A DNA stretch of 64,000 nucleotides from IMG/VR virus record IMGVR_UViG_2925939204_000001; one strand, written 5' to 3'. Source of the stretch: a virus. Its lineage: Duplodnaviria > Heunggongvirae > Uroviricota > Caudoviricetes. The stretch's first letter is position 1. Each line of letters opens with the position of its first letter. A program made the translations under genes and the position numbers. Positions 5,319-51,300 of the stretch are shown piece after piece. The notes beneath the pieces were generated by a model. That model had not been told where the DNA came from, did no database searches, and saw nothing but the letters and a program-made list of their open reading frames with translations.

Positions 5319-6826
5319 TGGCTGGCGGGCGCAAGATTAAATGCGTCACCAGCGATCCACGCTGGCGCGATATGGTAATCAAATACCGCTACAACTTTAC
5401 CCAGGCTGTTGTCGATATTTTTGGGATGTTCCCCTCCCACCAGCAGCAGCAGATCATTCAGTCAGTGCAGGAAACGGGGAGTAGGACTACCGTCACGTCC
5501 GGACACGGAACGGGGAAGTCGTCCCTTACCGCGATGTTGCTGTTGATTTTTATGATCCTGTTCCCCGATGCCCGTGTCATCATTGTTGCTAACAAGATAG
5601 GCCAGGTAAAAACAGGCGTATTCAAATACGTTAAACAGTATTGGGCGAATGCAGTTAAGCGTCATGGGTGGTTGCAGACCTATTTTGTCCTCTCTGACAC
5701 CATGTTTTATGAGCGCTCCCGTAAGGGGATTTGGGAAGTTCTCTGCAAAGGTTATCGACTCGGCAACGAAGAAGCGCTGGCGGGGGAACACGCGGCACAT
5801 TTGCTTCTAATTCTGGATGAAGCATCTGGTATATCTGATAAGGCGATCGGCGTAATGACCGGTGCTCTTACTGAAGAAGATAACCGGATGTTGATGCTAT
5901 CCCAGCCAACAAGGCCAAGTGGTTATTTCTACGATTCGCACCATTCTCGAGCAAAAACCCCAGACAACCCGAAAGGGATCTGGACAGCAATTGTTCTTAA
6001 CTCGGAAGAATCACCGTTCGTCACACCACAATTCATCAAGCAGAAGCTTCTGGAATATGGCGGGCGCGATTCTATTGAGTACATGGTCAAGGTGCTTGGT
6101 CAGTTCCCACGAGAAATTAACGGCTATTTGCTTGGTCGTGATGAATGCGATCGCGCTGCTCGCCGCAAGGTGTTGTTGGAGAAAAACTGGGGATGGGTGG
6201 CAACGGCTGACGTTGGTAATGGGCGAGATAAGTCGGTCCTCAACATCTGCAAGGTATCTGGTCACAGGGATAAGCGGCGCGTTGTTAACTTTAAGGTAAT
6301 GGAGATGCCTGGCACTATGGACCCATTGGCCTTTGCTGACTTCATATATAACGAATGTACGCCGGAAAAATACCCGAATATAACAATCGCGGTTGATGCT
6401 GATGGTTTTGGTTCTGATACGTGTGCGCAGTTGGTGCGTCGTGGTGCGAACCCGGTACGTATTCGGTGGGGAAAACCCATGTTTGCGAACAAAGACAGGG
6501 AGCGATTTGTTAATCAGCGTGCCTACGCAAATATTATGGCGCGTGATGCCATAAAGTCAGGGCGTATGCGGATAGACAGTGACCCTAAAACGGCAGAGCA
6601 AGCGTCAAAAATCCCCTTTTTACTGAATGAAGAGGGGAAAATGGCGATGATGCGCAAAGAGCACATGCGGCAAAAGCTAAACATCAAATCGCCTGACCGA
6701 TGGGATACCTACTGCTTCACTATGCTGGTGGACTATGTGCCTGCTAATGAAGATATTGGTGCCGAAATGGCAACTTTCCGAGATCAGGTTCTGGCGGATA
6801 TCGAAATGCCGGCTCTGGATATATAA
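5318..6826 (+). CDS. pacB: terminase large subunit PacB-like (ATPase/nuclease)
   Basis: Walker A SGHGTGKS and Walker B LLLILDEAS motifs; 502 aa; overlaps pacA stop. Confidence 0.85.
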   Translation: MAGGRKIKCVTSDPRWRDMVIKYRYNFTQAVVDIFGMFPSHQQQQIIQSVQETGSRTTVTSGHGTGKSSLTAMLLLIFMILFPDARVIIVANKIGQVKTGVFKYVKQYWANAVKRHGWLQTYFVLSDTMFYERSRKGIWEVLCKGYRLGNEEALAGEHAAHLLLILDEASGISDKAIGVMTGALTEEDNRMLMLSQPTRPSGYFYDSHHSRAKTPDNPKGIWTAIVLNSEESPFVTPQFIKQKLLEYGGRDSIEYMVKVLGQFPREINGYLLGRDECDRAARRKVLLEKNWGWVATADVGNGRDKSVLNICKVSGHRDKRRVVNFKVMEMPGTMDPLAFADFIYNECTPEKYPNITIAVDADGFGSDTCAQLVRRGANPVRIRWGKPMFANKDRERFVNQRAYANIMARDAIKSGRMRIDSDPKTAEQASKIPFLLNEEGKMAMMRKEHMRQKLNIKSPDRWDTYCFTMLVDYVPANEDIGAEMATFRDQVLADIEMPALDI

Positions 6827-6853
6827 AGCCCCGCGATGCGGGGCCGGTTGTGA

Positions 6854-7891
6854 TTACCAGAGCTTCGCGGCGTACTGCGTTTGGGGGAATGTGTATCCGT
6901 AACGTTCTTCGATTGCTTTGCCGTATTTTTTACGAGCTTCATTCAGTTTAATGCCGGTCAGGTCGTCTCCAGAGGCCATCATTACGTCTAACAATTCCAG
7001 ATCCATTTTATCCAGCCTTGCCATTGCTTCACGTGATGTACGTATCTTACGCTCAATGATATGGCGAATAGCCGGATCGGCATCCTCCAGCATCTTAGCG
7101 GATTTCTGCTTAAGGCTTTCATTGCGAATATCGATGTTCCTTAAGATGTACGACTTCGCAACATAGCTTGGCTGGTGTTTTTCCAGGTCACGAACACGAT
7201 ATAAGTTAAAATCGCCGAGAAGGCTGCAAGGTACCGATTCGACGCCAGAATAAATTGTAATGCTCCGGCGTTCACCAACATTATTGACAACGGGGATCGT
7301 TGTCTTCGGTAGTCTTGCGAAAACCAATGCACCATGTGCGCCAACTCTAAAGCGAGAAAGGGCATTGCTGCCTTCGATGTTTGTTGTCAGCACAACATCT
7401 GTATATGCCTCTTTACGCGCCCGGTAGATCTCGCCTTCAGGCTCAGCTTCAAAGAAGCGCTGTTCTTCTTCAAGAGCACCTACGATTTGAGAAAAAACCC
7501 TATTTTTCAGGCTTTTCTTTATGATTTTGTCGTATTTTTTGAGCAATTGTTCACGTGTAAATGTACGTGTTGTTGTAGCGCTTTGCACAACAACATGCGT
7601 GCTTTGATTGGTGTCCTCAATGATGAATGGGATCGGAGAATATACAGACTCAACAATGTTCGACGCTTTGCCGTCGGCATCGCGACACATGTCAACGAAG
7701 GCTTTCCATTCAGCAAGACATTTTTCAGCTTCTTCTAATATGTTTTGGTCATGCGTTAATGCAACATGGCGGAATTCCTCGCCAGCATAACTGGTATCAT
7801 GGAAAACAGAGTTTGCGACCACCAGCTCTTTCCACCGTTCAGCGGTTTGCAGGAACCGTTTGTACTCTTTCTCGATCGACTTCTTACTCAT
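6854..7891 (-). CDS. hypothetical 345-aa protein in the position occupied by the c1 repressor gene in P1
   Basis: Complete ORF convergent with pacB, divergent from rox-dre; operator-like motif just upstream of its start; sequence itself not recognised. Confidence 0.5.
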   Translation of the reverse strand: MSKKSIEKEYKRFLQTAERWKELVVANSVFHDTSYAGEEFRHVALTHDQNILEEAEKCLAEWKAFVDMCRDADGKASNIVESVYSPIPFIIEDTNQSTHVVVQSATTTRTFTREQLLKKYDKIIKKSLKNRVFSQIVGALEEEQRFFEAEPEGEIYRARKEAYTDVVLTTNIEGSNALSRFRVGAHGALVFARLPKTTIPVVNNVGERRSITIYSGVESVPCSLLGDFNLYRVRDLEKHQPSYVAKSYILRNIDIRNESLKQKSAKMLEDADPAIRHIIERKIRTSREAMARLDKMDLELLDVMMASGDDLTGIKLNEARKKYGKAIEERYGYTFPQTQYAAKLW

Positions 7892-7906
7892 TATTCCTAC
7901 TCGATT

Positions 7907-7920
7907 TAGTTTTCTAACAT
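7907..7920. promoter_or_regulatory. operator-like site TAGTTTTCTAACAT
   Basis: Copy of the recurring motif, 16 bp upstream of the 6854..7891 start codon. Confidence 0.4.
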
Positions 7921-8101
7921 AAAATTACTATGACAAATTTATGTCGAATAACAGAGTGAGTAAAGGATAGAACTGTGATTTTTTGTCATCAATTTTAGAA
8001 AACCAACTGTATAAACCACACTTCGCAAATTAAAGACCATGAAGGCAACGTGTTACTGGTCAGAATCAATCTGTGATGGATTAAAAAAAATCGCCATTTT
8101 A

Positions 8102-8133
8102 TAACTTTAAATAATTGGCATTATTTAAAGTTA
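8102..8133. other. rox site-specific recombination target (Dre target)
   Basis: 14-bp inverted repeats TAACTTTAAATAAT / ATTATTTAAAGTTA around a 4-bp spacer TGGC; matches the published rox sequence in reverse orientation. Confidence 0.85.
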
Positions 8134-8285
8134 GGCTATAATCATGGGTGGATGATCAGTGTTGACATCACTGAAAATACGTGCCTCGAATCAAAGGTTT
8201 GAATCTTGAAAATTAACTTATAGCTACCCTGTCATTTTTATATTTTTCGCGTAGCGTCATCTGTATATAGAGGTTAAATAGTTTC

Positions 8286-9314
8286 ATGAGTGAATTAATT
8301 ATCTCTGGCAGCTCCAGTGGTTTTCTGCGCAACATTGGCAAAGAGTACCAGGAGGCCGCAGAAAACTTTATGCGGTTCATGAATGACCAGGGGGCTTATG
8401 CGCCGAATACTCTGCGCGACCTCCGGTTGGTGTTTCATTCCTGGGCGCGCTGGTGTCACGCTCGCCAGCTTGCCTGGTTTCCGATCTCACCAGAAATGGC
8501 CCGCGAGTATTTTCTTCAGTTGCATGATGCCGATCTGGCTTCGACCACCATTGATAAGCACTATGCCATGCTTAACATGCTGCTTTCGCAATGTGGCCTC
8601 CCGCCGCTGTCGGACGATAAAAGTGTGTCTCTGGCCATGCGGCGCATCCGGCGCGAAGCGGCAACTGAAAAAGGCGAACGAACAGGCCAGGCTATACCGC
8701 TGCGGTGGGACGATCTGAAACTGCTCGACGTCCTGTTGTCCAGGTCAGAACGGCTGGTGGACCTGCGCAACCGGGCTTTTCTCTTTGTTGCATACAATAC
8801 CCTGTTGCGTATGGCTGAAATGTCCCGCGTGCGTGTTCGCGATCTGGAACAGACTGGTGACACTGTCACGCTACATATTTCACACACGAAGACAATAACG
8901 ACCGCCGCCGGGCTTGATAAGGTGCTTTCCCGTCGCACTACCGCTGTGCTGAATGACTGGCTGGATGTTTCCGGGCTTCGCGAACATCCTGACGCAGTGC
9001 TGTTCCCGCCGATACACCGTAGCAATAAGGCCAGGATCACGACAACGCCCCTTACTGCACCTGCAATGGAGAAAATATTCAGCGACGCCTGGGTGTTGCT
9101 GAATAAAAGAGATGCTACGCCAAACAAAGGAAGATACCGGACGTGGACCGGGCATAGTGCACGCGTCGGGGCCGCTATTGATATGGCTGAAAAGCAGGTG
9201 TCTATGGTGGAGATCATGCAGGAAGGAACCTGGAAGAAACCGGAAACACTTATGCGGTATCTTCGCCGTGGCGGCGTGTCTGTGGGGGCTAATAGCCGCC
9301 TGATGGATTCGTAA
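8286..9314 (+). CDS. dre: Dre tyrosine site-specific recombinase (Cre homologue)
   Basis: 342 aa, N-terminus MSELIISGSS...; Cre-family catalytic region with GHSARVGAA; adjacent rox site. Confidence 0.9.
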   Translation: MSELIISGSSSGFLRNIGKEYQEAAENFMRFMNDQGAYAPNTLRDLRLVFHSWARWCHARQLAWFPISPEMAREYFLQLHDADLASTTIDKHYAMLNMLLSQCGLPPLSDDKSVSLAMRRIRREAATEKGERTGQAIPLRWDDLKLLDVLLSRSERLVDLRNRAFLFVAYNTLLRMAEMSRVRVRDLEQTGDTVTLHISHTKTITTAAGLDKVLSRRTTAVLNDWLDVSGLREHPDAVLFPPIHRSNKARITTTPLTAPAMEKIFSDAWVLLNKRDATPNKGRYRTWTGHSARVGAAIDMAEKQVSMVEIMQEGTWKKPETLMRYLRRGGVSVGANSRLMDS

Positions 9315-9317
9315 ATT

Positions 9318-9331
9318 AAATTTCTAACACA
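9318..9331. promoter_or_regulatory. operator-like site AAATTTCTAACACA
   Basis: Copy of the recurring motif between dre and the next ORF. Confidence 0.4.
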
Positions 9332-9387
9332 TCTTTTTAGATTAACTCCTTTGATGTAAAGTACCCTCGCCTATTTAGGAGGGTGCT

Positions 9388-9732
9388 TTGCAGAGTCAAA
9401 TCACGGAATCAAGACGCTTCAAGGTGGATGGTTACACCGTAACCTTCGCCGCTGGTGTTAAGAACAGTCATGCTGTCGTTGTGTTCGGCATCATGACCGG
9501 GCTTGAGGCCGTTCCTGTGTTTACCCTCGAAAAAAACTGGCGAAATCTGGAGGAAGCAGAAAGCTACGTCCGGAAAGTAACCATCATTGCCGCCGAAAAA
9601 CTCCTGGCCCACTATCAGGAAAATTATCGCACTATGGTCGAGAAGATTAATCTCGCTTTCACTCGCCCCACTACCGGCTTTATTGCACCGGATACTAATG
9701 CAGGTCGATATCCGGCAAGGGGGCGTCGGTGA
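9388..9732 (+). CDS. hypothetical protein (114 aa)
   Basis: Complete ORF downstream of dre. Confidence 0.5.
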   Translation: MQSQITESRRFKVDGYTVTFAAGVKNSHAVVVFGIMTGLEAVPVFTLEKNWRNLEEAESYVRKVTIIAAEKLLAHYQENYRTMVEKINLAFTRPTTGFIAPDTNAGRYPARGRR

Positions 9733-10205
9733 AAACTTATTACACATCTCTGAATTGTTACCCGTCTTCCTATCCAGAATTATCAGGGAAGCTGTTAGCT
9801 CTATTAGCTAAAGCACCTACGGAATGGTTTAAGCCAGTCGTTATCAATCCACACTTCCTGGATTACGGATCTGTTCGCACTCGTAACGAACTCAAAAACC
9901 TACTGGCGCATGGATTCATTCGACACCGTGCCGGGAAAGGCTATCAGTTAGCGATTGCGCCAGAGGAGGCCGTGCGGCTATTCGCATATCGTGACAGCCA
10001 GACAAAAGCTCGGGTAATAGCTCAAATACTTCATAACGGCAGCACCTATGCCCGCCAGTTTGGCGGCGACACGTCGCAGTTCTTGCGGGCGGTGCGATCG
10101 CTGGAGGAGCAAGGAGTTATTGAAAGTTCCTGTCTTCCTGTTCCTACCGTTCCACATATCAAACGTCGGGTTTACACCTTCACGCAGAGAGCTAAAAAAC
10201 AATGA
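9729..10205 (+). CDS. hypothetical protein (158 aa)
   Basis: ORF overlapping upstream stop. Confidence 0.5.
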   Translation: MKTYYTSLNCYPSSYPELSGKLLALLAKAPTEWFKPVVINPHFLDYGSVRTRNELKNLLAHGFIRHRAGKGYQLAIAPEEAVRLFAYRDSQTKARVIAQILHNGSTYARQFGGDTSQFLRAVRSLEEQGVIESSCLPVPTVPHIKRRVYTFTQRAKKQ

Positions 10206-10696
10206 TTTACGTAAAAGTGAAACGCCTACATCCGGCAGCAAAACTTCCAGCTTATGCCACCTCCGGATCGGCGGCGATGGATTTTGAGGCTGTTGAAATA
10301 AAACCATGCGTCGATAGCAATGGTGCAATTTCCTCAAGCTGGTGGGTGTATACCGGACTGGCTATGGAGATCCCGCCCGGCTGGTGTCTGAAACTCTATC
10401 CGCGATCCGGATTGGGCTGCAAAAAACATACTCGCCTGGCTAACTGCGTAGGAATTATCGACTCCGATTATCGCGGCGAAATCATGGCAAAACTGATTAC
10501 TGATCCCGGCGGGGAAGGCGTTTGTCTCAAGCCTGGAATGGCTGTCATGCAAGGAATTTTTGAACGTGTTGAACAAGTCTCACTAGTCGAGGTTGAGGAA
10601 CTCAACGAAACGGAACGTGGTGCTGGTGGCTTTGGTAGCACATCGGAAGGCCACTTTGAAATTAAGCGTTCACCGCTTCAGTACGAAAAGTTATAA
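10202..10696 (+). CDS. dut: dUTP diphosphatase (dUTPase)
   Basis: Trimeric dUTPase motifs RSGLG, GIIDSDYRGE and a C-terminal RG.GGFGSTS-type motif. Confidence 0.85.
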   Translation: MIYVKVKRLHPAAKLPAYATSGSAAMDFEAVEIKPCVDSNGAISSSWWVYTGLAMEIPPGWCLKLYPRSGLGCKKHTRLANCVGIIDSDYRGEIMAKLITDPGGEGVCLKPGMAVMQGIFERVEQVSLVEVEELNETERGAGGFGSTSEGHFEIKRSPLQYEKL

Positions 10697-10710
10697 GCAG
10701 AGAAAAGACT

Positions 10711-11388
10711 ATGAATAACATGGCAACGAAAGAGCTTTTTAAGTTCCTTCCCAAATACAAAGCTCACAAAAACGTTAGTGCATCGAAAATCAAAAATGTT
10801 GTTATTTTCGGAGTAACTGATGCCCCACTTTGGGGCTGCATCGAACTCGTTGAACCAAAAGGGGCAACAGTTTGTGTTGACGCAATGTTTTTACAAAAAC
10901 ACCGACCAAAAACTGGCGGATATCTGATCGTTTATGAAAACGGTTATCTGTTCTATGCCCCGGAGAAACCATTTGAGGAACGCTATGGCCTGGTTAACGA
11001 CGCCTCCAAAAATGGAACCACGGTCATCATTACGGATGACAACGGCGTGATGATTAATCTTACCGGGAGCGTAACTATTTCTGCTGGTGGCATCACCACC
11101 CAGCAAGAAGAAATCGACCTTGAAGCAGCCGACTTTTCTGACGCGCTGATGTGGCTGAAGGATGGCAAGAAAGTTGCTCGACGCGGGTGGAACGGCGAAA
11201 ACCAATTCTGCTGGCTGGTTCCTGAAGGACAGTACCCGGCACGAATGGAAGCCATTAAGGGATATTTCCCCGGCGACCTCGTTCCGTATGGTGCTTATTT
11301 CGCCTTAAAAAATGCACAAGGTGTAGTTGTTCAGTGGGTTCCTTCTGTAGGCGACTTACTGGCATGTGACTGGTTTGTAGTGGAGTGA
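10711..11388 (+). CDS. DUF2829-like phage protein
   Basis: C-terminal segment ALMWLKDGKKVARRGWNG...CDWFVVE resembles the DUF2829 fold as I recall it. Confidence 0.45.
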   Translation: MNNMATKELFKFLPKYKAHKNVSASKIKNVVIFGVTDAPLWGCIELVEPKGATVCVDAMFLQKHRPKTGGYLIVYENGYLFYAPEKPFEERYGLVNDASKNGTTVIITDDNGVMINLTGSVTISAGGITTQQEEIDLEAADFSDALMWLKDGKKVARRGWNGENQFCWLVPEGQYPARMEAIKGYFPGDLVPYGAYFALKNAQGVVVQWVPSVGDLLACDWFVVE

Positions 11389-11394
11389 TTTAAC

Positions 11395-12195
11395 GTGGAA
11401 AATACTAAAACAATTCAATACCGCTTGCGTAATGGCCTGCTGGTGGCTGTTAACGCCGACATGTCACTGCCGTTTGACACGATTGAACGTACTATCATGA
11501 CGTATCTCGGCTTTAATGAAGAGCTGAATGAAGAGCATGGCGTAGCTATATGGAGTGATGCAGAAAGCGGCGTTCATCGTTACATCACCGCCAGGGGTAA
11601 AGACTACTCTCTGGAAGAACTGTTTACCCTTGCACAGTCTTTCGAATGTGTAGCATTAGACATGTTTAATGATCCTGCTATAGCGCAACGACTTATACGC
11701 GAGCTTGGGCTATCCGTTACACCAATTATCTTTAAGAATGGCAGCCTGACTGGCACATGGCGCGTAGAACGCATCTCAAACTACCTTCCATATAACCGAC
11801 AGTTAAATGGAGTAATCTCCGGCGTTAATCAGCCCGTAGCGTGTGAAAATGTAAACCTGGTTGCCGCTGTTTTGGCAACCGCATGTCGTGTTATCGGTTT
11901 GGCTAAACAGGCTTTTATTCATTTCCCAAATGGTGCAGAAGGTAGCGCAGAGATTATCGCGTGTGATTTCGAATTTACCTGGATGCTACGCGAATATCTG
12001 GACCAAACAGTGTTCCGCGCCGAAGAACTGGATATGTATATCACGTCAACGATTCCTGATGATGTGCGTGCTGAAGCAATCGCCACAGCAAGGGCCAAAT
12101 GCCGTGCGGCGATTGCAGAGCAGGCCAAAGAAGAACCGTCCGATGAAGCCGTGGCTGATGTTGAAGCAGAGGTAGCGGAGGATGCTGACGCCTAA
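11395..12195 (+). CDS. hypothetical protein with acidic C-terminus (266 aa)
   Basis: Complete ORF; C-terminal Glu/Asp/Ala-rich tail. Confidence 0.5.
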   Translation: MENTKTIQYRLRNGLLVAVNADMSLPFDTIERTIMTYLGFNEELNEEHGVAIWSDAESGVHRYITARGKDYSLEELFTLAQSFECVALDMFNDPAIAQRLIRELGLSVTPIIFKNGSLTGTWRVERISNYLPYNRQLNGVISGVNQPVACENVNLVAAVLATACRVIGLAKQAFIHFPNGAEGSAEIIACDFEFTWMLREYLDQTVFRAEELDMYITSTIPDDVRAEAIATARAKCRAAIAEQAKEEPSDEAVADVEAEVAEDADA

Positions 12196-12249: not shown

Positions 12250-12280
12250 GAAGCCCGCCTGGTTGAGCGGGCTTCTTTTC
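12250..12280. terminator. bidirectional terminator hairpin between 11395..12195 and doc
   Basis: GAAGCCCGC-CTGGTTGA-GCGGGCTTC stem-loop followed by TTTTC. Confidence 0.55.
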
Positions 12281-12659
12281 AAATATTGGAACCAAATAAT
12301 TCACGTAGTTTTTCCGCTACTGAAGATACGGGGATTTCACCAGTTGCGGCCCCCACCGCAAGTTCCACCAGCACGGGAGAATCATATACCTGTATGCCGT
12401 TACGGCGTAGAAATAGCAGCGCACTGTTTAGCGCGGTACGCTTATTGGCATCATTGAATATATGCCCTCTCGCCGTAGCTACCAGGTAGGTGGCGGAGAC
12501 TTCGAAAAGGTCGGTGATCTCTTCGTAGGCAACTCTGGCCTGAACTCTCCCGATAATGGCCTCTGCCCTACCCGGATCAGACATTCCCGGCAGGCCGCCG
12601 TAGCGGTTTATATTCGCATCATGAAGCGCAATAAGTTCTTCTGGTGATATATGCCTCAT
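12279..12659 (-). CDS. doc: Doc toxin (Fic-fold kinase of the phd-doc addiction module)
   Basis: 126 aa; [17 protein letters not shown]...[13 protein letters not shown] matches P1 Doc as I recall it. Confidence 0.9.
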
Positions 12660-12880
12660 TATCGGTTAACCAGTTCCTTGTTGGTGGAGTCCAGGGTGTC
12701 AAACAGGGATGCAAATTCAGCATCCAGCGCCGCTTTTTTGTAGGCTTCAAAAGTAGCCTTGCTGACAATTACTGCTGGCTCTCGGCCTCTGCGGGTGATT
12801 TCAACCTCTTCCCCGGCTTCAACATTGTTGAGCACTTCAGAAAGGTTGCCGCGCGCGGTACGGAAGTTAATGGATTGCAT
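12659..12880 (-). CDS. phd: Phd antitoxin
   Basis: [39 protein letters not shown]; start overlaps doc; real start taken at the internal Met. Confidence 0.9.
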
Positions 12881-12952
12881 AAACACCTCATGTACTCGTT
12901 ATGTGTACACAACTATAAACTTCACAGGTATAAAGCACCAGCACTTTGCAGC

Positions 12953-13342
12953 TTAAATCACCGGACAATCATCAAATTCCCCACTTCGGGCATCATTGAT
13001 GGCATGAGTGATCACACCAAAAACAGCATTACTGCCCGTGTATCCATCGTCATCTACTGGTAACGCCTCTTTCTTCCCGGTGCTTAAGTCCTCCAGGTGC
13101 TGGCGCGGATACTTCCTGTATCTCTTTATGCGATATTCACCCTCCATAGCGCACACAAGCAGAGAACCATCAACCGGAGTAAGCGAGGAATCAACCACCA
13201 GCAAAGCACCCTGCAATATTCCCTCACGGTGATGGCTGTCTGCCGCCCGCATGAAGTAGGTCGCTGATGGATGCCTGATTAGTTGCTGATCAAGAGAAAT
13301 TCGGCTTTCAACATAATCCGCCGCAGGAGAAGGGAAGCCCAT
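12953..13342 (-). CDS. humD: HumD, UmuD'-like translesion synthesis accessory protein
   Basis: GFPSPAADYVE.RI.L.Q.LI.HPSATYF matches the UmuD core; lacks the UmuD N-terminal extension. Confidence 0.88.
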   Translation of the reverse strand: MGFPSPAADYVESRISLDQQLIRHPSATYFMRAADSHHREGILQGALLVVDSSLTPVDGSLLVCAMEGEYRIKRYRKYPRQHLEDLSTGKKEALPVDDDGYTGSNAVFGVITHAINDARSGEFDDCPVI

Positions 13343-13362
13343 AGCGTTTTACCTCAATGATA

Positions 13363-13378
13363 CTGTTTATTCATACAG
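13363..13378. promoter_or_regulatory. LexA box (SOS operator) upstream of humD
   Basis: CTGT-ttattcat-ACAG matches CTGT-N8-ACAG; 21 nt upstream of the humD start codon. Confidence 0.6.
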
Positions 13379-13379
13379 T

Positions 13380-15300
13380 GTGCGCCGGGAGACCGGTAGA
13401 GATCAAGGGGTGAAAGTCCCCGACCATTGAAGGACCAGCAATCCACAAGGTCCCCGAGTCATGCGTTGCATACCGCGAGGTATGGGGCGAAGCGTTGACA
13501 GGGGTGTTGACAGGCCAGCCATTGAGCCACGAAATGTATATTAAATTACCGGGTGCCGACGTTGTACTGTTAACGGAAGGCAACATCATAGGGTGCGATA
13601 CTGCGAGTGCCACATGGACCCGGCGGGGTCTGAGACCCTGGCATGTCAATACGATCTCTACGCGGGAACCGGGAGATCTCCCCTCTGACCATCTGCCAGT
13701 GTCGGAGATGGCCCGCACCGGGAAGACGAGGAGTCATAGCCGGTGATGTACGGAGAGGAGAAGTCGGACTCGCTCATAGTAGCGGCGAAGCAGGCGAACA
13801 ACCCGAAAGGAGCGGAGTCAGTGGAGCGAAGGAGCGGGGCCAAGGGGAACGCGGAACAGCCACACATGCGCCGGACACAGAGCCGGGAAAGCATGTCACA
13901 GAGGCTGTCACGCGTGCGGGAAGCTGCGAAGCAGCAGAAGAAAGAACGGTTTACAGCATTGTTCCACCTGCTGACAGTCGAAGCACTGGAAGCCGCATTC
14001 CTCTCCCTGAGCAGGAAAGCGGCCGCGGGAGTGGATGGCATCAGGTGGATGGACTACGCCGGAAACATGAAGAACAACATAACAGATCTGCACCGGAGGC
14101 TACATCAGGGCAGCTACAGGGCGCAGCCCGGCAGGCGTCACTACATCCCAAAAGCGGATGGAAAACAACGCCCGCTCGGCATCGCCTCGCTGGAGGACAA
14201 GATCGTCCAGTATGCGCTGGTGAAAATCCTGAACGCAGTCTATGAAAACGACTTTATGGGGTTCTCATACGGGTTCAGACCCGGGCGAAACCAGCACGAT
14301 GCACTGGACGCACTGGCCACAGGGCTGGTACGCACTAACGTAAACTGGGTACTGGATGCCGACATCAGTCAGTTCTTCGACAGGGTGAGCCACGAATGGC
14401 TGATCAGGTTCACAGAGCATCGGATCGGCGACCGGAGGGTAATCAGGCTCATACGTAAGTGGCTCACAGCCGGGACGTCGGAGGAGGGTCAATGGCGAGC
14501 AACGGAGGAAGGCACCCCACAGGGTGCGGTCATCTCACCGCTGCTGGCAAACATATACCTCCACTACGTCTTCGATCTGTGGGCGCATCAGTGGCGACGT
14601 CGCTATGCCACAGGCAATGTGGTAATGGTCAGATACGCCGATGACATCGTCATCGGGTTCGACAAACGATACGATGCCCGGCGCTTCCGTATAGCCATGC
14701 AGCGCAGACTGAGGGAGTTCGGACTCACGGTTCACCCGGAGAAAACCCGTCTGATGGAGTTCGGCCGCTTCGCTGCCGAAAACCGTGCCATCAGGGGAAA
14801 AGGCAAACCAGAAACGTTCAACTTCCTCGGGTTCACGCACATCAGCGGGAAAGATCGCAACGGCAGGTTCATGCTGATACGAAAGACCCGCCGGGATCGG
14901 ATGACGGCAACTCTGAAAGCCATCAAAGACGGTCTGCGAAGGCGCTGGCATTACTCAATCCCCGAACAGGGAAAATGGCTCAGGAGAGTGGTTCAGGGAT
15001 ACCTGAACTATCACTCGGTACCGGGCAACTTCCCCACCATGCAGAAGTTCAGGACACACGTAACAAACCTCTGGCGCCGGGCGCTCAGGCGCAGGAGCCA
15101 GAAGGATGATACGACCTGGACGAAAGCAAACAAACTGGCAGCCGCATGGCTACCAAGGGTTCGGGTTCTTCATCCATGGCCTGTGGAGCGGTTCACCGCC
15201 AGACACCCGAGGCAGGAGCCCGGTGCGTAAATCGCGCACGCCGGGATCTGTGCGGGGGGTATCCGGTAACGGGTATCCCTACCGCGACATACATTGAAAA
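13380..15300 (+). mobile_element. group II intron (bacterial, ORF in domain IV); 3' boundary approximate
   Basis: 5' end GTGCGCC; internal RT/maturase ORF; 34-nt domain V-like hairpin with GUAA tetraloop and 2-nt bulge at 15252-15285 after the ORF. Confidence 0.7.
13743..15230 (+). CDS. group II intron-encoded reverse transcriptase/maturase
   Basis: RT motifs including GTPQGAVISPLLANIYL and YADD; C-terminal maturase region; no Cys-rich HNH endonuclease domain visible. Confidence 0.9.
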   Translation: MMYGEEKSDSLIVAAKQANNPKGAESVERRSGAKGNAEQPHMRRTQSRESMSQRLSRVREAAKQQKKERFTALFHLLTVEALEAAFLSLSRKAAAGVDGIRWMDYAGNMKNNITDLHRRLHQGSYRAQPGRRHYIPKADGKQRPLGIASLEDKIVQYALVKILNAVYENDFMGFSYGFRPGRNQHDALDALATGLVRTNVNWVLDADISQFFDRVSHEWLIRFTEHRIGDRRVIRLIRKWLTAGTSEEGQWRATEEGTPQGAVISPLLANIYLHYVFDLWAHQWRRRYATGNVVMVRYADDIVIGFDKRYDARRFRIAMQRRLREFGLTVHPEKTRLMEFGRFAAENRAIRGKGKPETFNFLGFTHISGKDRNGRFMLIRKTRRDRMTATLKAIKDGLRRRWHYSIPEQGKWLRRVVQGYLNYHSVPGNFPTMQKFRTHVTNLWRRALRRRSQKDDTTWTKANKLAAAWLPRVRVLHPWPVERFTARHPRQEPGA

Positions 15301-15374
15301 GGCATAGTTTGTGAAAGCGGGGTTTGTAGGCGCGCCACGCTGGGGGCTAATCACATTTCTCCCCCATCTTGCCG

Positions 15375-15647
15375 TTATTTTTTTGGTGCATCCTCGTTCT
15401 GATACACCGGATCGCTCCCTTTTGGCAACTGGAGGCTTAACTGCCGATAGTGCCGTAACCGTTCCATGAAATAGGTGCGCAGATTCTCTGGTTGCTCGCG
15501 GGCTACCTGTTCAGCTATGACAGGTATGTTCAATCGCTCTTTGTACGCCACACCGCTGGCAGCCAGATCAACGTTAACCTTATCCCGTTCTTCCTGACTT
15601 TTAGCTGCAATATTCCAATCGTGCATATCAAATCCCATCCAGAACAA
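15375..15647 (-). CDS. hot: Hot, homologue of DNA polymerase III theta subunit (HolE)
   Basis: [33 protein letters not shown] aligns with the HolE core. Confidence 0.8.
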
Positions 15648-29863: not shown

Positions 29864-30456
29864 TTTAAGTTGAATTGAAAAACTCTCCGATGTACATTCA
29901 CTACCGATTGGCACACCGGTCAACTTTTTGAGACAAACTGTTTAGTTTTTCGTATTATTGCCTCCGCCATACCTATGGCGGTGCAATATAGGTGGCTGAA
30001 AAGCCCCCGTTGACTCACGGTGTTCCAGCCTTTATTGCGCCGCCACCAGACCGTGGAACAGTCGATGGCGGCTCCGAAAGCAAGGAGTCACAACACTATG
30101 AACAACTACAGTCTTTTCCCATCACTCGTCGTCCACCACTCACGCGATAATCTGCATTCTTTACTCGCGCTGGGGGTGTCAAAATGACTGTTCGCTACCT
30201 CAACTTTCAAATCAAGAACATTACTGGCGGTTGCTATGACTGGTTTGTCACTCTCGGAAAAGAAGTGATCACCGGGAAGCTGGATGAAGTGAAAGCTAAA
30301 GCAATGGCCTACGCCTGCAAGCAAGCCCGGAAGAAATCCGCCAAAGCATAAAATACTGACTGTTGCGCCCTGGCATTATCGTGGGGTATATTTCTACGGC
30401 ACCTTAGAAAAACGGGTGCCGGGATTGGAACCCCGGATAATGCAAAAGGCGACACA

Positions 30457-30478
30457 GACGCCGAAAGCGTCTTTTTTT
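30457..30478 (+). terminator. Rho-independent terminator
   Basis: GACGCCGAAAGCGTC hairpin followed by TTTTTTT. Confidence 0.6.
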
Positions 30479-30479
30479 G

Positions 30480-30640
30480 TGTCATGCCATCGCACAGCCA
30501 TACGTAGCGTTTAGCTCAGAGATCAATGGTAGTGCTGGCTGGGCTGCCGAAAGGCAGGCCGGTTCCCTTTTGCGCCGGTAGTTCCAACCCAGTCAGTGCT
30601 ACCGCCATTGAGATTGGAACCTCACGCGGTAGCTCCTTAA
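30480..30640 (+). ncRNA. putative c4-like antisense RNA / immI leader region
   Basis: Non-coding leader upstream of an icd-ant pair with short mutually complementary elements (GTTCCAAC at ~30579 and TTGGAAC at ~30613) near the icd RBS; boundaries not determined. Confidence 0.3.
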
Positions 30641-51003: not shown

Positions 51004-51134
51004 AATAAAATAAATCATCAAAAATTTGATGTTGATCTTCCATGTTTTCAGGCTTATATTCACGCCGTTGCAGCAAATTCTGCGACCGGGTTTAGCAGCC
51101 TGAATGTACATGCGGACAACCGCAGATATCCGAT

Positions 51135-51300
51135 ATTGCGGTATTTTTGTGTCCGTAAAACCATGTTACGCCCGAATTATGGTGGGGCGTGATGGGGAGG
51201 CTTCGGCCTGCTGGTTTCATGTACGCCAGTCTGCTAACCCCGTCACGTCCTGCCACCCGTTTAGCAGCGGGTAGCAGGTTGTTAAACCTGTACATGAGGC
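51135..51300 (+). ncRNA. putative c4-like antisense RNA / immI leader region (second copy, different sequence)
   Basis: Same architecture as 30480-30640: hairpin with T run at ~51101-51130, then leader with self-complementary TGTACA-containing elements near the icd RBS. Confidence 0.25.

Follow-up and report, generated by a model that had tools for sequence, protein, structure and literature searches.

The window, by which the whole analysed stretch of 64 kb of viral DNA is meant, carries between hot and the UmuD′-like gene humD a group II intron of 1909 nt (plus strand, GUGCG...GCGAC) that is oriented antisense to humD (Table 1). As the original prediction had it, the 5′ end of the intron adjoins a canonical LexA (SOS) box near the start of humD: the CTGT-N8-ACAG core with its A/T-rich spacer spans 13363–13378, 20 nt from the humD start (13342, minus strand), and the junction of box and intron reads TACTGTTTATTCATACAGTG. 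humD is an SOS gene with an invaded operator. The intron does not fill the whole interval between the two genes, as had been assumed, since 37 nt towards humD and 86 nt towards hot are left outside it, and its 3′ end lies at 15288, i.e. 12 nt before the interval end of 15300 given initially.

Table 1. Features of the humD locus and its intron, with window coordinates; a slash marks the point of insertion.
Feature	Position	Strand	Basis
humD, UmuD′-like, Peptidase_S24	12953–13342	−	Pfam PF00717; P1 humD annotation
LexA (SOS) box, first 19 nt of 20 bp, TACTGTTTATTCATACAGT/A	13361–13379		intron 5′ exon
IBS1 (ACAGT), right arm of the box	13375–13379	+	flank conservation; covariation with the EBS1 loop
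Group II intron, copy of Se.ma.I1/Kl.pn.I5	13380–15288	+	empty-site comparison; identity to the CP023932 copy
Ribozyme domains D1–D4, 5′ part	13413–13638	+	Rfam group-II-D1D4-6
Candidate EBS2, single-stranded GUAUAUUAAAUUA	13536–13548	+	complementarity in relatives
EBS1 (ACUGU)	13566–13570	+	terminal loop 13564–13571 of a D1 hairpin
Intron-encoded protein, 495 aa, RT + maturase (X)	13743–15230	+	TIGR04416, RVT_1; YADD motif
Domain V	15216–15248	+	AGC triad 15217–15219, AC bulge 15238–15239
Domain VI	15252–15285	+	14 bp, GUAA loop, bulged UA; MFE fold
3′ exon, first bases	15289–15291		A15289 continues the split LexA box as position 20; empty site
Predicted −35 hexamer TTCACA of the former humD promoter	15310–15315	−	promoter scan of intron-less 813R1

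The identification of a group II intron beginning with GTGCG at 13380 is borne out at both the RNA and the protein level. The Rfam family RF02005 (group-II-D1D4-6) matches 13413–13638 over the full length of the model (186.6 bits, E 1e-54, gathering score 49), so that a lack of group II RNA domains in covariance model searches, which would have refuted the prediction, is not encountered. RF00029, the Rfam model for domain V/VI, gave no match at E≤10 between 13200 and 15500, and the domain V/VI type of this intron falls outside that model. Both domains were located by alignment and covariation in 12 diverse relatives (alignment A1). The 12 pairs of domain V are paired throughout the 12 relatives (100%), five of them with compensatory changes, and the same holds for the 14 pairs of domain VI (100% paired, five with compensatory changes), for which none of 500 shuffles reached the observed values on four of five measures. 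Hence, the hairpin at 15252–15285 that had been taken for domain V is domain VI, and A15281, located 7 nt 5′ of the 3′ splice site, is the presumed branch point.

The open reading frame within the intron encodes the RT/maturase that had been proposed. TIGR04416 (group II RT/maturase) matches residues 81–451 with 374.6 bits at a cutoff of 300, RVT_1 matches with an E value of 7e-47, and its best PDB relatives are group II RTs, among them the GsI-IIC RT. Apart from RVT_1, no Pfam domain was found in the 495-aa protein at E≤10; an HNH endonuclease domain is absent and the TIGR04416 match stops at residue 451, in agreement with the endonuclease-less maturase suggested before and in contrast to En+ group II introns, which possess a C-terminal HNH endonuclease. 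The reading frame overlaps domain V, with its stop codon (15228–15230) located at the tip of the domain V hairpin. With a GUGYG 5′ end, the D1–D4 fold, domains V and VI, an RT/maturase and EBS–IBS pairing (see below), the element meets the sequence and structure criteria for a mobile bacterial group II intron. Its class is known only as Rfam type D1D4-6, and no lettered class (A–F, CL, ML) is given.

The window intron is an intact copy that was probably inserted recently. Over its 1909 nt, which is also the modal length of other copies, it shares 99.79% nucleotide identity with a copy in plasmid CP023932, whose intron has been named Se.ma.I1 (= Kl.pn.I5; PMC6764390). The pOXA-48 copy and one from an E. 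coli chromosome are, like that in CP023932, about 99.8% identical to it over the full 1909 nt, and the proteins encoded by these two copies share 99.6% identity with the window protein. Se.ma.I1/Kl.pn.I5 (names of the bacterial group II intron database), also known as the ‘ltrA’ intron from pOXA-48 and numerous Klebsiella plasmids, is very common in enterobacteria and present in more than 4000 plasmids, pOXA-48 among them, as well as in prophages and chromosomes. The humD insertion site of the present P1-like element was absent from INPHARED, PLSDB, the complete genomes of E. coli and IMG/VR.

Comparison with an intron-less relative, which had been put forward as a check, reveals the exact empty site. 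In phage vB_EcoM-813R1 (L001), TACTGTTTATTCATACAGT is directly followed by the A that opens the 3′ exon in the window, which indicates a precise insertion, and the full 20-mer TACTGTTTATTCATACAGTA is intact (L001, 762–781). Likewise, 42 IMG/VR contigs contain the exact humD-type empty site. The P1 annotation places a LexA binding site for lxr/humD at the homologous position (L003, 763–782), and the intron splits this box between positions 19 and 20. It did not replace lxr, whose slot in P1 it had been said to occupy, and instead entered a common type of backbone without lxr, as seen in these 42 contigs. On its own, the motif would not be noteworthy: CTGT-N8-ACAG occurs only once in the window, where 0.6 occurrences are expected by chance, and at least one was present in 43 of 100 shuffles. 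Its significance thus derives from homology, namely from the P1 annotation and the intact 20-mer in the intron-less relative. It fulfils the criteria of sequence and location for a LexA operator, being a CTGT-N8-ACAG palindrome that lies within the promoter region of a gene linked to DNA damage and corresponds by homology to a recognised site. The box-like sequence could also have been carried by the element at its 5′ end rather than having pre-existed as the target, and BLAST matches between copies indeed reach 5–32 nt upstream of GTGCG. Yet, the complete box without intron in 813R1 and the 42 contigs, the LexA site annotated in P1, as well as spacers that vary from site to site and match known local operators, e.g. 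that of umuDC, render this scenario highly unlikely.

The insertion falls within the SOS promoter region of humD, as anticipated, even though this promoter is a consensus-scan prediction only. In 813R1 (L001, 807–778), a sigma-70-like site TTCACA-18-TATACT with 10 of 12 matches was detected, whose −10 hexamer overlaps the LexA box and is split by the insertion point (TAT/ACT). In the window, the first half of this hexamer (TAT) is found on the minus strand at 15291–15289, and the predicted −35 hexamer is now 1.9 kb away from humD. Neither a promoter-like site between 13200 and 13480 nor a plus-strand promoter able to drive the window intron was found. A minus-strand promoter-like site inside the intron (13613–13585, 9/12 matches) was rejected as no better than chance. 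The P1 record predicts PhumD elsewhere, inside lxr. Because the −10 hexamer is cut and the −35 hexamer was moved by 1.9 kb, it is inferred that SOS-inducible transcription of humD was probably lost or much reduced by the insertion, which would leave the phage gene cut off from its SOS promoter. LexA binding is inferred, from sequence alone, to be retained, with 19 of 20 positions and the whole core still in place. There is no evidence on transcription or splicing of the window copy, and the analysis is purely computational.

The adjacency to a LexA box had been regarded as a peculiarity of the humD locus; a comparison of approximately 240 copies, collected by their exact 5′ pattern, points instead to a homing specificity of the whole intron lineage. 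CTG-N10-CAG at −17 to −2, ending one base before the intron, is found in 88 of 100 unique 5′ flanks and in the same register in 62 of 73 unrelated flank clusters, with a chance of about 1 in 4096 for this motif at a fixed register. Many copies reside at orthologous prophage sites and the events are not all independent. The target consensus is TACTGTATATATATACAGT/AT: the right arm (A−5, C−4, A−3, G−2, T−1) is conserved in 92–100 of the 100 unique flanks and the left arm (C−17, T−16, G−15) in 90–95, while on the 3′ side +1 is A at 33 of 35 sites and +2 is T at 31 of 35. The left arm is missing from about a tenth of the sites. IS genes lie next to some of the partial boxes, which may thus have been truncated secondarily. 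The boxes hit are those of known SOS genes, namely umuD homologues, dinI, tum-like and sbmC-like genes, imuA and cloacin; at the protein level, they flank genes for UmuD-like S24 peptidases, DinI, Tum-like, GyrI-like and ImuA proteins and the PA0069 radical SAM protein, and individual cases are the chromosomal E. coli umuDC, the mucA-like gene of pOXA-48 and cloacin. Identity among the copies from dozens of different sites is 99.5% or higher, and the box preference is common to variants from Burkholderiales with about 72–74% identity.

As negative controls served other group II intron lineages recovered in a genome scan with an 18-mer, which also caught coincidental coding matches in Actinobacteria. 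Among the matches listed, none of about 20 introns of other lineages abuts a LexA box. A coincidental adjacency at humD, i.e. an intron of other or loose specificity that landed beside a LexA box by chance, would be in keeping with the unremarkable number of one motif per 64 kb, but it is effectively refuted by the flank counts, given the identical register of the box in 62 of 73 unrelated contexts. It is also at odds with the right arm being complementary to a loop whose sequence, over the whole class, covaries with the respective target, and can practically be disregarded. Judged by these sequences, the whole lineage appears to target LexA boxes, and the position beside the humD box is not due to chance.

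How the box is read can be deduced from the relatives. The loop sequence ACUGU in D1 is assigned to EBS1 because it covaries with the right arm of the box: in at least nine differently targeted relatives, this loop covaries with the last 5–7 nt of the 5′ exon, for example in L008, where the target ends with AUACAGG directly before the intron and the loop reads CCUGUAU. For the candidate EBS2, a tentative partner is the A/T-rich spacer of the box, at about −13 to −9. The equivalent stretch of relatives complements −14 to −7 of their own targets, with the pairs GUCCC/GGGAC in L094, AGAUGUC/GACAUCU in L045, UGAUC/GAUCA in L011 and GGAUA/UAUCC in L116. For the window intron, the assignment remains tentative because only A-U pairs are possible; the register of EBS2–IBS2 is ambiguous and merely about 3 bp can form at its own spacer TTATTCAT. 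A δ–δ′ interaction of the nucleotide 5′ of EBS1 with +1 was rejected, as it fits the window lineage (U/A) but not the relatives, with a T at +1 and a U in the loop of both L045 and L094.

Given that the palindrome of the box is perfect or nearly so, the intron might recognise not its sequence but a hairpin that it forms in single-stranded DNA, analogous to class C introns, whose proteins also lack an endonuclease domain; insertions in both orientations would be compatible with such a structural recognition. However, the insertion takes place inside the palindrome and not downstream of it, and IBS1 is the 3′ arm itself, which makes hairpin formation and EBS1 pairing mutually exclusive. Moreover, the hairpin stem would be A/T-rich and weak, about a tenth of the sites have no left arm, the RNA is of the Rfam type D1D4-6 and a terminator-like hairpin is absent. 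Structural recognition is hence regarded as improbable.

A more serious possibility, albeit a minority one in our assessment, is that the pairing is only loose (ACAGT plus an A/T-rich stretch) and that the enrichment of full boxes has another origin: either solely intergenic operator insertions survive, or the intron protein or bound LexA contacts the left arm. The left arm is indeed strongly conserved although no EBS was found for it, and ACAGT without left arm is almost never occupied (8/1904). In contrast, the extended right half (TATNNANACAGT) without left arm is occupied in 8 of 15 cases, comparable to 70 of 95 for full boxes. This suggests that the 12–13 nt of the right part suffice and that most sequences of this kind just happen to be LexA boxes. 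In addition, given the near-identity of the copies from dozens of sites, selection has had little time to do more than eliminate lethal insertions.

Sequence-directed homing to the SOS box accounts best for these data, and it is considered very probable that the window intron is a mobile Se.ma.I1/Kl.pn.I5 that retrohomed into the humD LexA operator as a member of a lineage that homes to this box. According to this proposal, the γ/β-proteobacterial SOS box itself would be the homing site. The EBS1 loop 5′-ACUGU would pair with the right arm ACAGT and EBS2 probably with the A/T-rich spacer, before reverse splicing would place the intron after position 19 of the box (TACTG-N10-CAGT/A). As the box is palindromic, either strand could be used; both orientations relative to the target gene are found, and no box occupied on both strands was detected. 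Sense-oriented copies at umuDC of E. coli (Ecol_AZ146), cloacin, tum-like and sbmC-like genes place the intron just 3′ of an SOS promoter, and their expression may be coupled to DNA damage. This coupling is an inference, and promoter scans at sense sites mostly yielded nothing, as at E. coli umuDC and in Kpn_R1, with only a weak signal in the cloacin plasmid. Endonuclease-less group II introns such as RmInt1 prime cDNA synthesis from replication forks. As the window protein has no endonuclease domain, its cDNA is, by analogy, probably primed in the same way. Mobility, splicing and retrohoming are themselves inferred, with the near-identical copies at dozens of sites as indirect basis.

On a broader level, we cautiously favour the idea that the widespread clade comprising Se.ma.I1/Kl.pn.I5 and its Burkholderiales relatives evolved its exon-binding sites for the LexA operator. 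If so, it would have gained a landing site that is conserved, intergenic and present in multiple copies in nearly all γ/β-proteobacterial chromosomes, plasmids and temperate phages, the possibility of SOS-induced intron expression in sense orientation and, as a side effect, an orientation-dependent rewiring of SOS genes, by which umuDC, mucAB, humD-type mutagenesis genes, colicins and prophage antirepressors would be uncoupled from their promoters. Every SOS box would be a potential landing pad, which would explain the spread of the intron in more than 4000 sequenced plasmids, prophages and chromosomes. The SOS response is itself set off by conjugation as well as by the induction of prophages. 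Orientation-dependent effects are predicted for error-prone polymerases (umuDC, mucAB, humD), colicin/cloacin release and prophage antirepressors, which would bear on mutagenesis and plasmid fitness in clinical Enterobacterales. As far as searched, LexA-operator homing by a group II intron clade has not been described before, and no paper on a LexA or SOS-box specificity of group II introns was found among the matches listed in a literature search. Leclercq and Cordaux (2012) derived the homing site of Se.ma.I1/Kl.pn.I5 as a strict consensus from three copies, without mention of LexA or SOS for this site, and reported no free sites (PMC3522654). Homing to LexA operators would correct this estimate, according to which K. 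pneumoniae MGH lacks free homing sites for the intron (PMC3522654).

A transcription-factor operator as homing site would be a new kind of target for group II introns. To our knowledge, these elements target either a single defined site in a gene or, as class C does, the hairpins of terminators or attC. Compared with Se.ma.I1/Kl.pn.I5, the window intron is the same element, for which the humD site is new with respect to the databases searched. Sister lineages of the same RNA class, such as L055, L089, L090, L094 and L045, share the 5′ 18-mer, the domain V/VI architecture and a reading frame extending into domain V, and their proteins are 59–68% identical, but their EBS1 loops and targets differ and the targets are not LexA boxes. 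Class C introns (IIC, including IIC-attC) resemble the window intron in lacking an endonuclease and in their recurrent use of a palindromic intergenic motif at many loci instead of one gene. They insert downstream of terminator or attC stem-loops by recognition of structure and very short IBS1/IBS3 (PMC3001079, PMC3522654). The window intron, in contrast, is located inside the palindrome with one arm as IBS1, is of the Rfam type D1D4-6 and encodes a 495-aa protein; the class C hallmark of a position a few nt 3′ of an intrinsic terminator or attC stem-loop does not apply, as no terminator-like site was found upstream, in accordance with the missing upstream terminator hairpin noted originally. 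RmInt1 from Sinorhizobium meliloti is similar in its RT-maturase without endonuclease, in a target read by EBS1 and EBS2 and in the presumed priming at replication forks. While RmInt1 homes within an insertion sequence, the lineage described here would home to a regulon-wide transcription-factor operator found on many plasmids and phages.

Phage vB_EcoM-813R1 (ON470617), an intron-less genome of the kind with which the original prediction had proposed comparison, has flanks 98.4% identical to those of the window, lacks the insert and supplies the exact empty site, GATACTGTTTATTCATACAGT/ATACATTGAAAAGG (here and below, the slash marks the insertion point). In the window, the same sequence is broken after ...ACAGT by GTGCG...GCGAC. 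As the 813R1 site is uninterrupted there, the intron spans 13380-15288 (1909 nt), inserted into the 20-bp LexA box TACTGTTTATTCATACAGTA after position 19 and before position 20. The box is a host feature that predates the insertion rather than the element's own, since the homologous position in the P1 record bears the annotation of a LexA binding site 'in the regulatory region of lxr and humD'; lxr is absent from the backbone that received the intron. The exact 35-nt empty site was found in 42 IMG/VR contigs and the occupied humD junction in none; in INPHARED, PLSDB and the complete E. coli genomes, both window junctions are never covered by a single record. Given this absence from the databases searched, the humD insertion is rare and presumably recent. 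The window itself is part of a P1-like phage-plasmid. It opens with a cluster of four tRNA genes (549-2032, Rfam tRNA matches), and C4 antisense RNA matches at 30399-30609 (76.7 bits, adjoining an isrK-like sRNA match) and 51054-51260 (71.7 bits, adjoining c4 a1/b1 target sites) suggest two immunity-type regions within one such element.

Features of the humD-hot interval and its surroundings in the window
Feature	Position	Strand	Basis or remark
doc	12279-12659	minus	Pfam Fic/DOC
phd	12659-12886	minus	Pfam PhdYeFM
humD	12953-13342	minus	Pfam Peptidase_S24
LexA box core	13363-13378		CTGT-N8-ACAG, 20 nt from humD start codon
Predicted -10, second half ACT	13379-13377	minus	equivalent of 813R1 site
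Intron start GTGCG	13380	plus	between humD and hot
Rfam group-II-D1D4-6	13413-13638	plus	full-length match, 186.6 bits, E 1e-54
ORF, 495 aa	13743-15230	plus	RVT_1; TIGR04416 (group II intron RT/maturase), 374.6 bits, cutoff 300
Domain V	15216-15248	plus	AGC triad, 9-bp lower helix, 2-nt AC bulge
Domain VI	15252-15285	plus	A15281 bulged, 7 nt before 3' splice site
Predicted -10, first half TAT	15291-15289	minus	equivalent of 813R1 site
Predicted -35	15315-15310	minus	equivalent of 813R1 site
hot	15375-15647	minus	Pfam DNA pol III theta subunit

The intron, its RT/maturase ORF and the LexA box beside humD were thus all recovered as originally predicted, as was the lack of an endonuclease domain: no Pfam domain beyond RVT_1 was detected in the 495-aa protein with the threshold relaxed to E<=10, and TIGR04416 matches it as far as aa 451, which leaves no room for an HNH domain. 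The covariance models answered in part, group-II-D1D4-6 being found whereas the Rfam domain V/VI model gave no match in the window intron. Domains V and VI were instead established by aligning the final 81 nt of the intron with those of 11 relatives, which included introns whose proteins share no more than 59-74% identity with that of the window copy. In this 12-sequence alignment, two 3' hairpins have 100% of cells paired, with compensatory changes at ten pairs; 0 of 500 shuffles attained the observed values on four of five measures, and shifting the 3' partners by 1-3 columns abolished the signal. The hairpin previously called domain V-like is domain VI, domain V being the preceding one, whose tip holds the TAA stop codon of the ORF.

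ORF, YADD motif, domain V and domain VI are all intact. The element, a bona fide mobile group II intron, is the one named Se.ma.I1/Kl.pn.I5; its full-length identity to a copy in K. pneumoniae plasmid CP023932 is 99.79%. At least 80% of it is present in 4116 PLSDB plasmids, chiefly from Klebsiella, and it occurs in 203 complete E. coli genomes, in several Klebsiella and E. coli phages and in pOXA-48, where it is the gene annotated 'ltrA'. Six contigs of 0.7-12 kb from actinobacterial type-strain assemblies (L022, L032, L043, L054, L057 and L063; Nocardiopsis, Leucobacter, Brevibacterium, Arthrobacter, Streptomyces and Actinomadura) carry this enterobacterial intron beside gamma-type LexA boxes; the flank of L054 is identical to that of a Klebsiella cloacin plasmid, and these contigs are probably contamination.

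Judged from its 5' flanks, this lineage as a rule lies next to a LexA box. In Klebsiella phage Kpn_R1, a 99.5% identical copy follows a different box, ACTGTATATAAATACAGT/. An exact-pattern scan of three public collections yielded at least 243 intron 5' ends, many of them at orthologous prophage sites. Among the matches listed, 88 of 100 unique 22-nt 5' flanks carry CTG-N10-CAG at -17..-2, and 71 carry CTGT-N8-ACAG; at a fixed register, the motif is expected by chance about once in 4096. After clustering of the distal flanks (-80..-21), the full box is still found in 62 of 73 unrelated contexts among these matches. Their consensus is TACTGTATATATATACAGT/AT, which is the E. coli LexA consensus TACTGTATATATATACAGTA, with A at +1 in 33 of 35 listed sites. 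T at +2 (31 of 35 listed) is more conserved than would be expected outside the 20-bp box. The 5' 18-mer used in the scan also picked up group II introns belonging to other lineages; among those listed, none abuts such a box. Variants from Burkholderia, Paraburkholderia, Herbaspirillum and related genera, 72-74% identical to the window copy, keep the LexA-box position, and the next relatives (59-68% protein identity) are inserted elsewhere; hence, the preference is a clade-level trait. In an alphaproteobacterial sister lineage, the intron of a Mesorhizobium locus (L055, both junctions read) is centred in an inverted repeat, GAACAAG/AGCTGTTC (GAAC-N7-GTTC), which differs from the known alphaproteobacterial LexA motif; a Microvirga locus (L016) shares this 5' flank.

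Covariation indicates how the intron reads the box. The terminal loop of a D1 hairpin just 5' of GGAAGGCAAC covaries class-wide with the final 5-7 nt of the 5' exon, which identifies window 13566-13570 as exon-binding site EBS1 and the right arm of the box as its partner IBS1.

Covariation of 5' exon ends and D1 loops (L-numbers: loci collected from public databases)
Locus	5' exon end	Loop
window	ACAGU	ACUGU
L008	AUACAGG	CCUGUAU
L055	ACAAG	CUUGU
L089	UUCUGA	UCAGGA
L094	UUGGUA	UACCAA
L090	GGAUA	UAUCC
L088	UUUGUG	CACAAA
L011	UCAGG	CCUGA
L045	GGAGAC	GUUUCC

The stretch homologous to single-stranded 13536-13548 is complementary to -14..-7 of the relatives' own targets and so behaves as EBS2 there. 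For introns of the LexA-box lineage, its only possible partner is the A/T spacer, in an ambiguous register; the strong conservation of T-12, A-11 and T-10 (94-98, 90 and 94 of 100 listed flanks) is consistent with such pairing. For the left arm, no RNA partner was found. Sequences with the extended right half TATNNANACAGT carry the intron in 8 of 15 cases when the left CTG is missing and in 70 of 95 when it is present; for ACAGT alone, the figure is 8 of 1904. Possibly, then, the right 12-13 nt suffice, most such sequences simply being LexA boxes. IS genes lie next to some of the partial boxes, whose left arm may have been lost secondarily to a later IS insertion; nor can a protein contact to the left arm be ruled out. 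Left-arm-less sites L274, L283 and L300 lie beside genes resembling, by eye, ISL3-type or IS1 InsA transposases. Tandem head-to-tail arrays occur in L146 (IMG/VR 2880021599_000003; 6088-11856, four copies) and L183 (1103-3053, two copies), with a spacing of exactly 1909 nt, no exon between copies and the junction ...CCGCGAC/GTGCG. Re-invasion of the retained box-intron junction by a further copy would be expected to produce such arrays, IBS1 and IBS2 both being confined to the 5' exon; an assembly artefact is not excluded.

Genes beside occupied boxes encode UmuD-like S24 peptidases, DinI, a 146-aa Tum-like protein with a C-terminal DinI domain, GyrI-like (SbmC-type) proteins, ImuA (NF033429, 207 bits) and a PA0069-family radical SAM protein, and include chromosomal E. 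coli umuDC, the mucA-like/umuC operon of pOXA-48 and the cloacin gene of ColE1-type plasmids. These genes are known to be LexA-regulated, and with such classic regulon members as neighbours, the occupied boxes are true SOS operators. The palindromic box offers the same site on either strand, and the intron occurs in both orientations relative to the SOS gene. No collected box is occupied on both strands, although each occupied box retains a near-complete target on its other strand.

Insertion within the SOS promoter region of humD, as originally proposed, is supported by a consensus scan of intron-less 813R1, in which the sole promoter-like site is TTCACA-18-TATACT (10/12 matches) on the humD strand. 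Its predicted -10 hexamer overlaps the LexA box and is divided by the insertion point between TAT and ACT. The same scan finds no promoter-like site left next to humD in the window. Hence, although 19 of 20 box positions remain beside it, humD has probably lost its SOS promoter, itself a consensus prediction; the gene may be silent, or it may be transcribed by read-through that comes from hot and crosses the antisense intron. Like lxr in P1, the intron is directed away from humD, and the scan found no promoter driving it. Every functional statement on intron and humD is an inference from sequence. In pOXA-48 (L338, NZ_CP144892, 2498-4445), the 'ltrA' intron follows LexA box AACTGTTTATACATACAGT/, 16 nt from the mucA/umuD-like start codon, and is divergent from and antisense to this gene as in humD; given this same arrangement, the mucAB-like operon may likewise be severed from its SOS promoter. 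Sense-oriented copies lie between SOS promoter/operator and gene, for example with 18 nt separating the intron from umuD in E. coli Ecol_AZ146, and with about 47 nt between it and the start codon of cloacin in a cloacin plasmid. SOS-coupled intron transcription is plausible there, albeit unproven; simple promoter scans of these sites were mostly uninformative.

The literature searched, which did not extend to subscription-only articles or the intron database, yielded no report of LexA/SOS boxes as targets of a group II intron, so that such targeting is likely, though not certainly, unreported. Only one paper was found to have analysed the homing site of Kl.pn.I5; it derived a strict consensus from three copies and concluded that K. 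pneumoniae MGH has no free sites, without mention of LexA, SOS or a palindrome (Leclercq & Cordaux 2012, PMC3522654); other papers record the presence or movement of the intron and nothing more. Like RmInt1 and other endonuclease-less introns, Se.ma.I1/Kl.pn.I5 relies on EBS/IBS pairing, as inferred from sequence, and it shares with class C introns the exploitation of a recurrent palindromic intergenic motif. Unlike class C introns, it inserts inside the palindrome, its RNA is of a different type and a terminator is absent, as had been noted for the window site; together, these features rule out a class C assignment.
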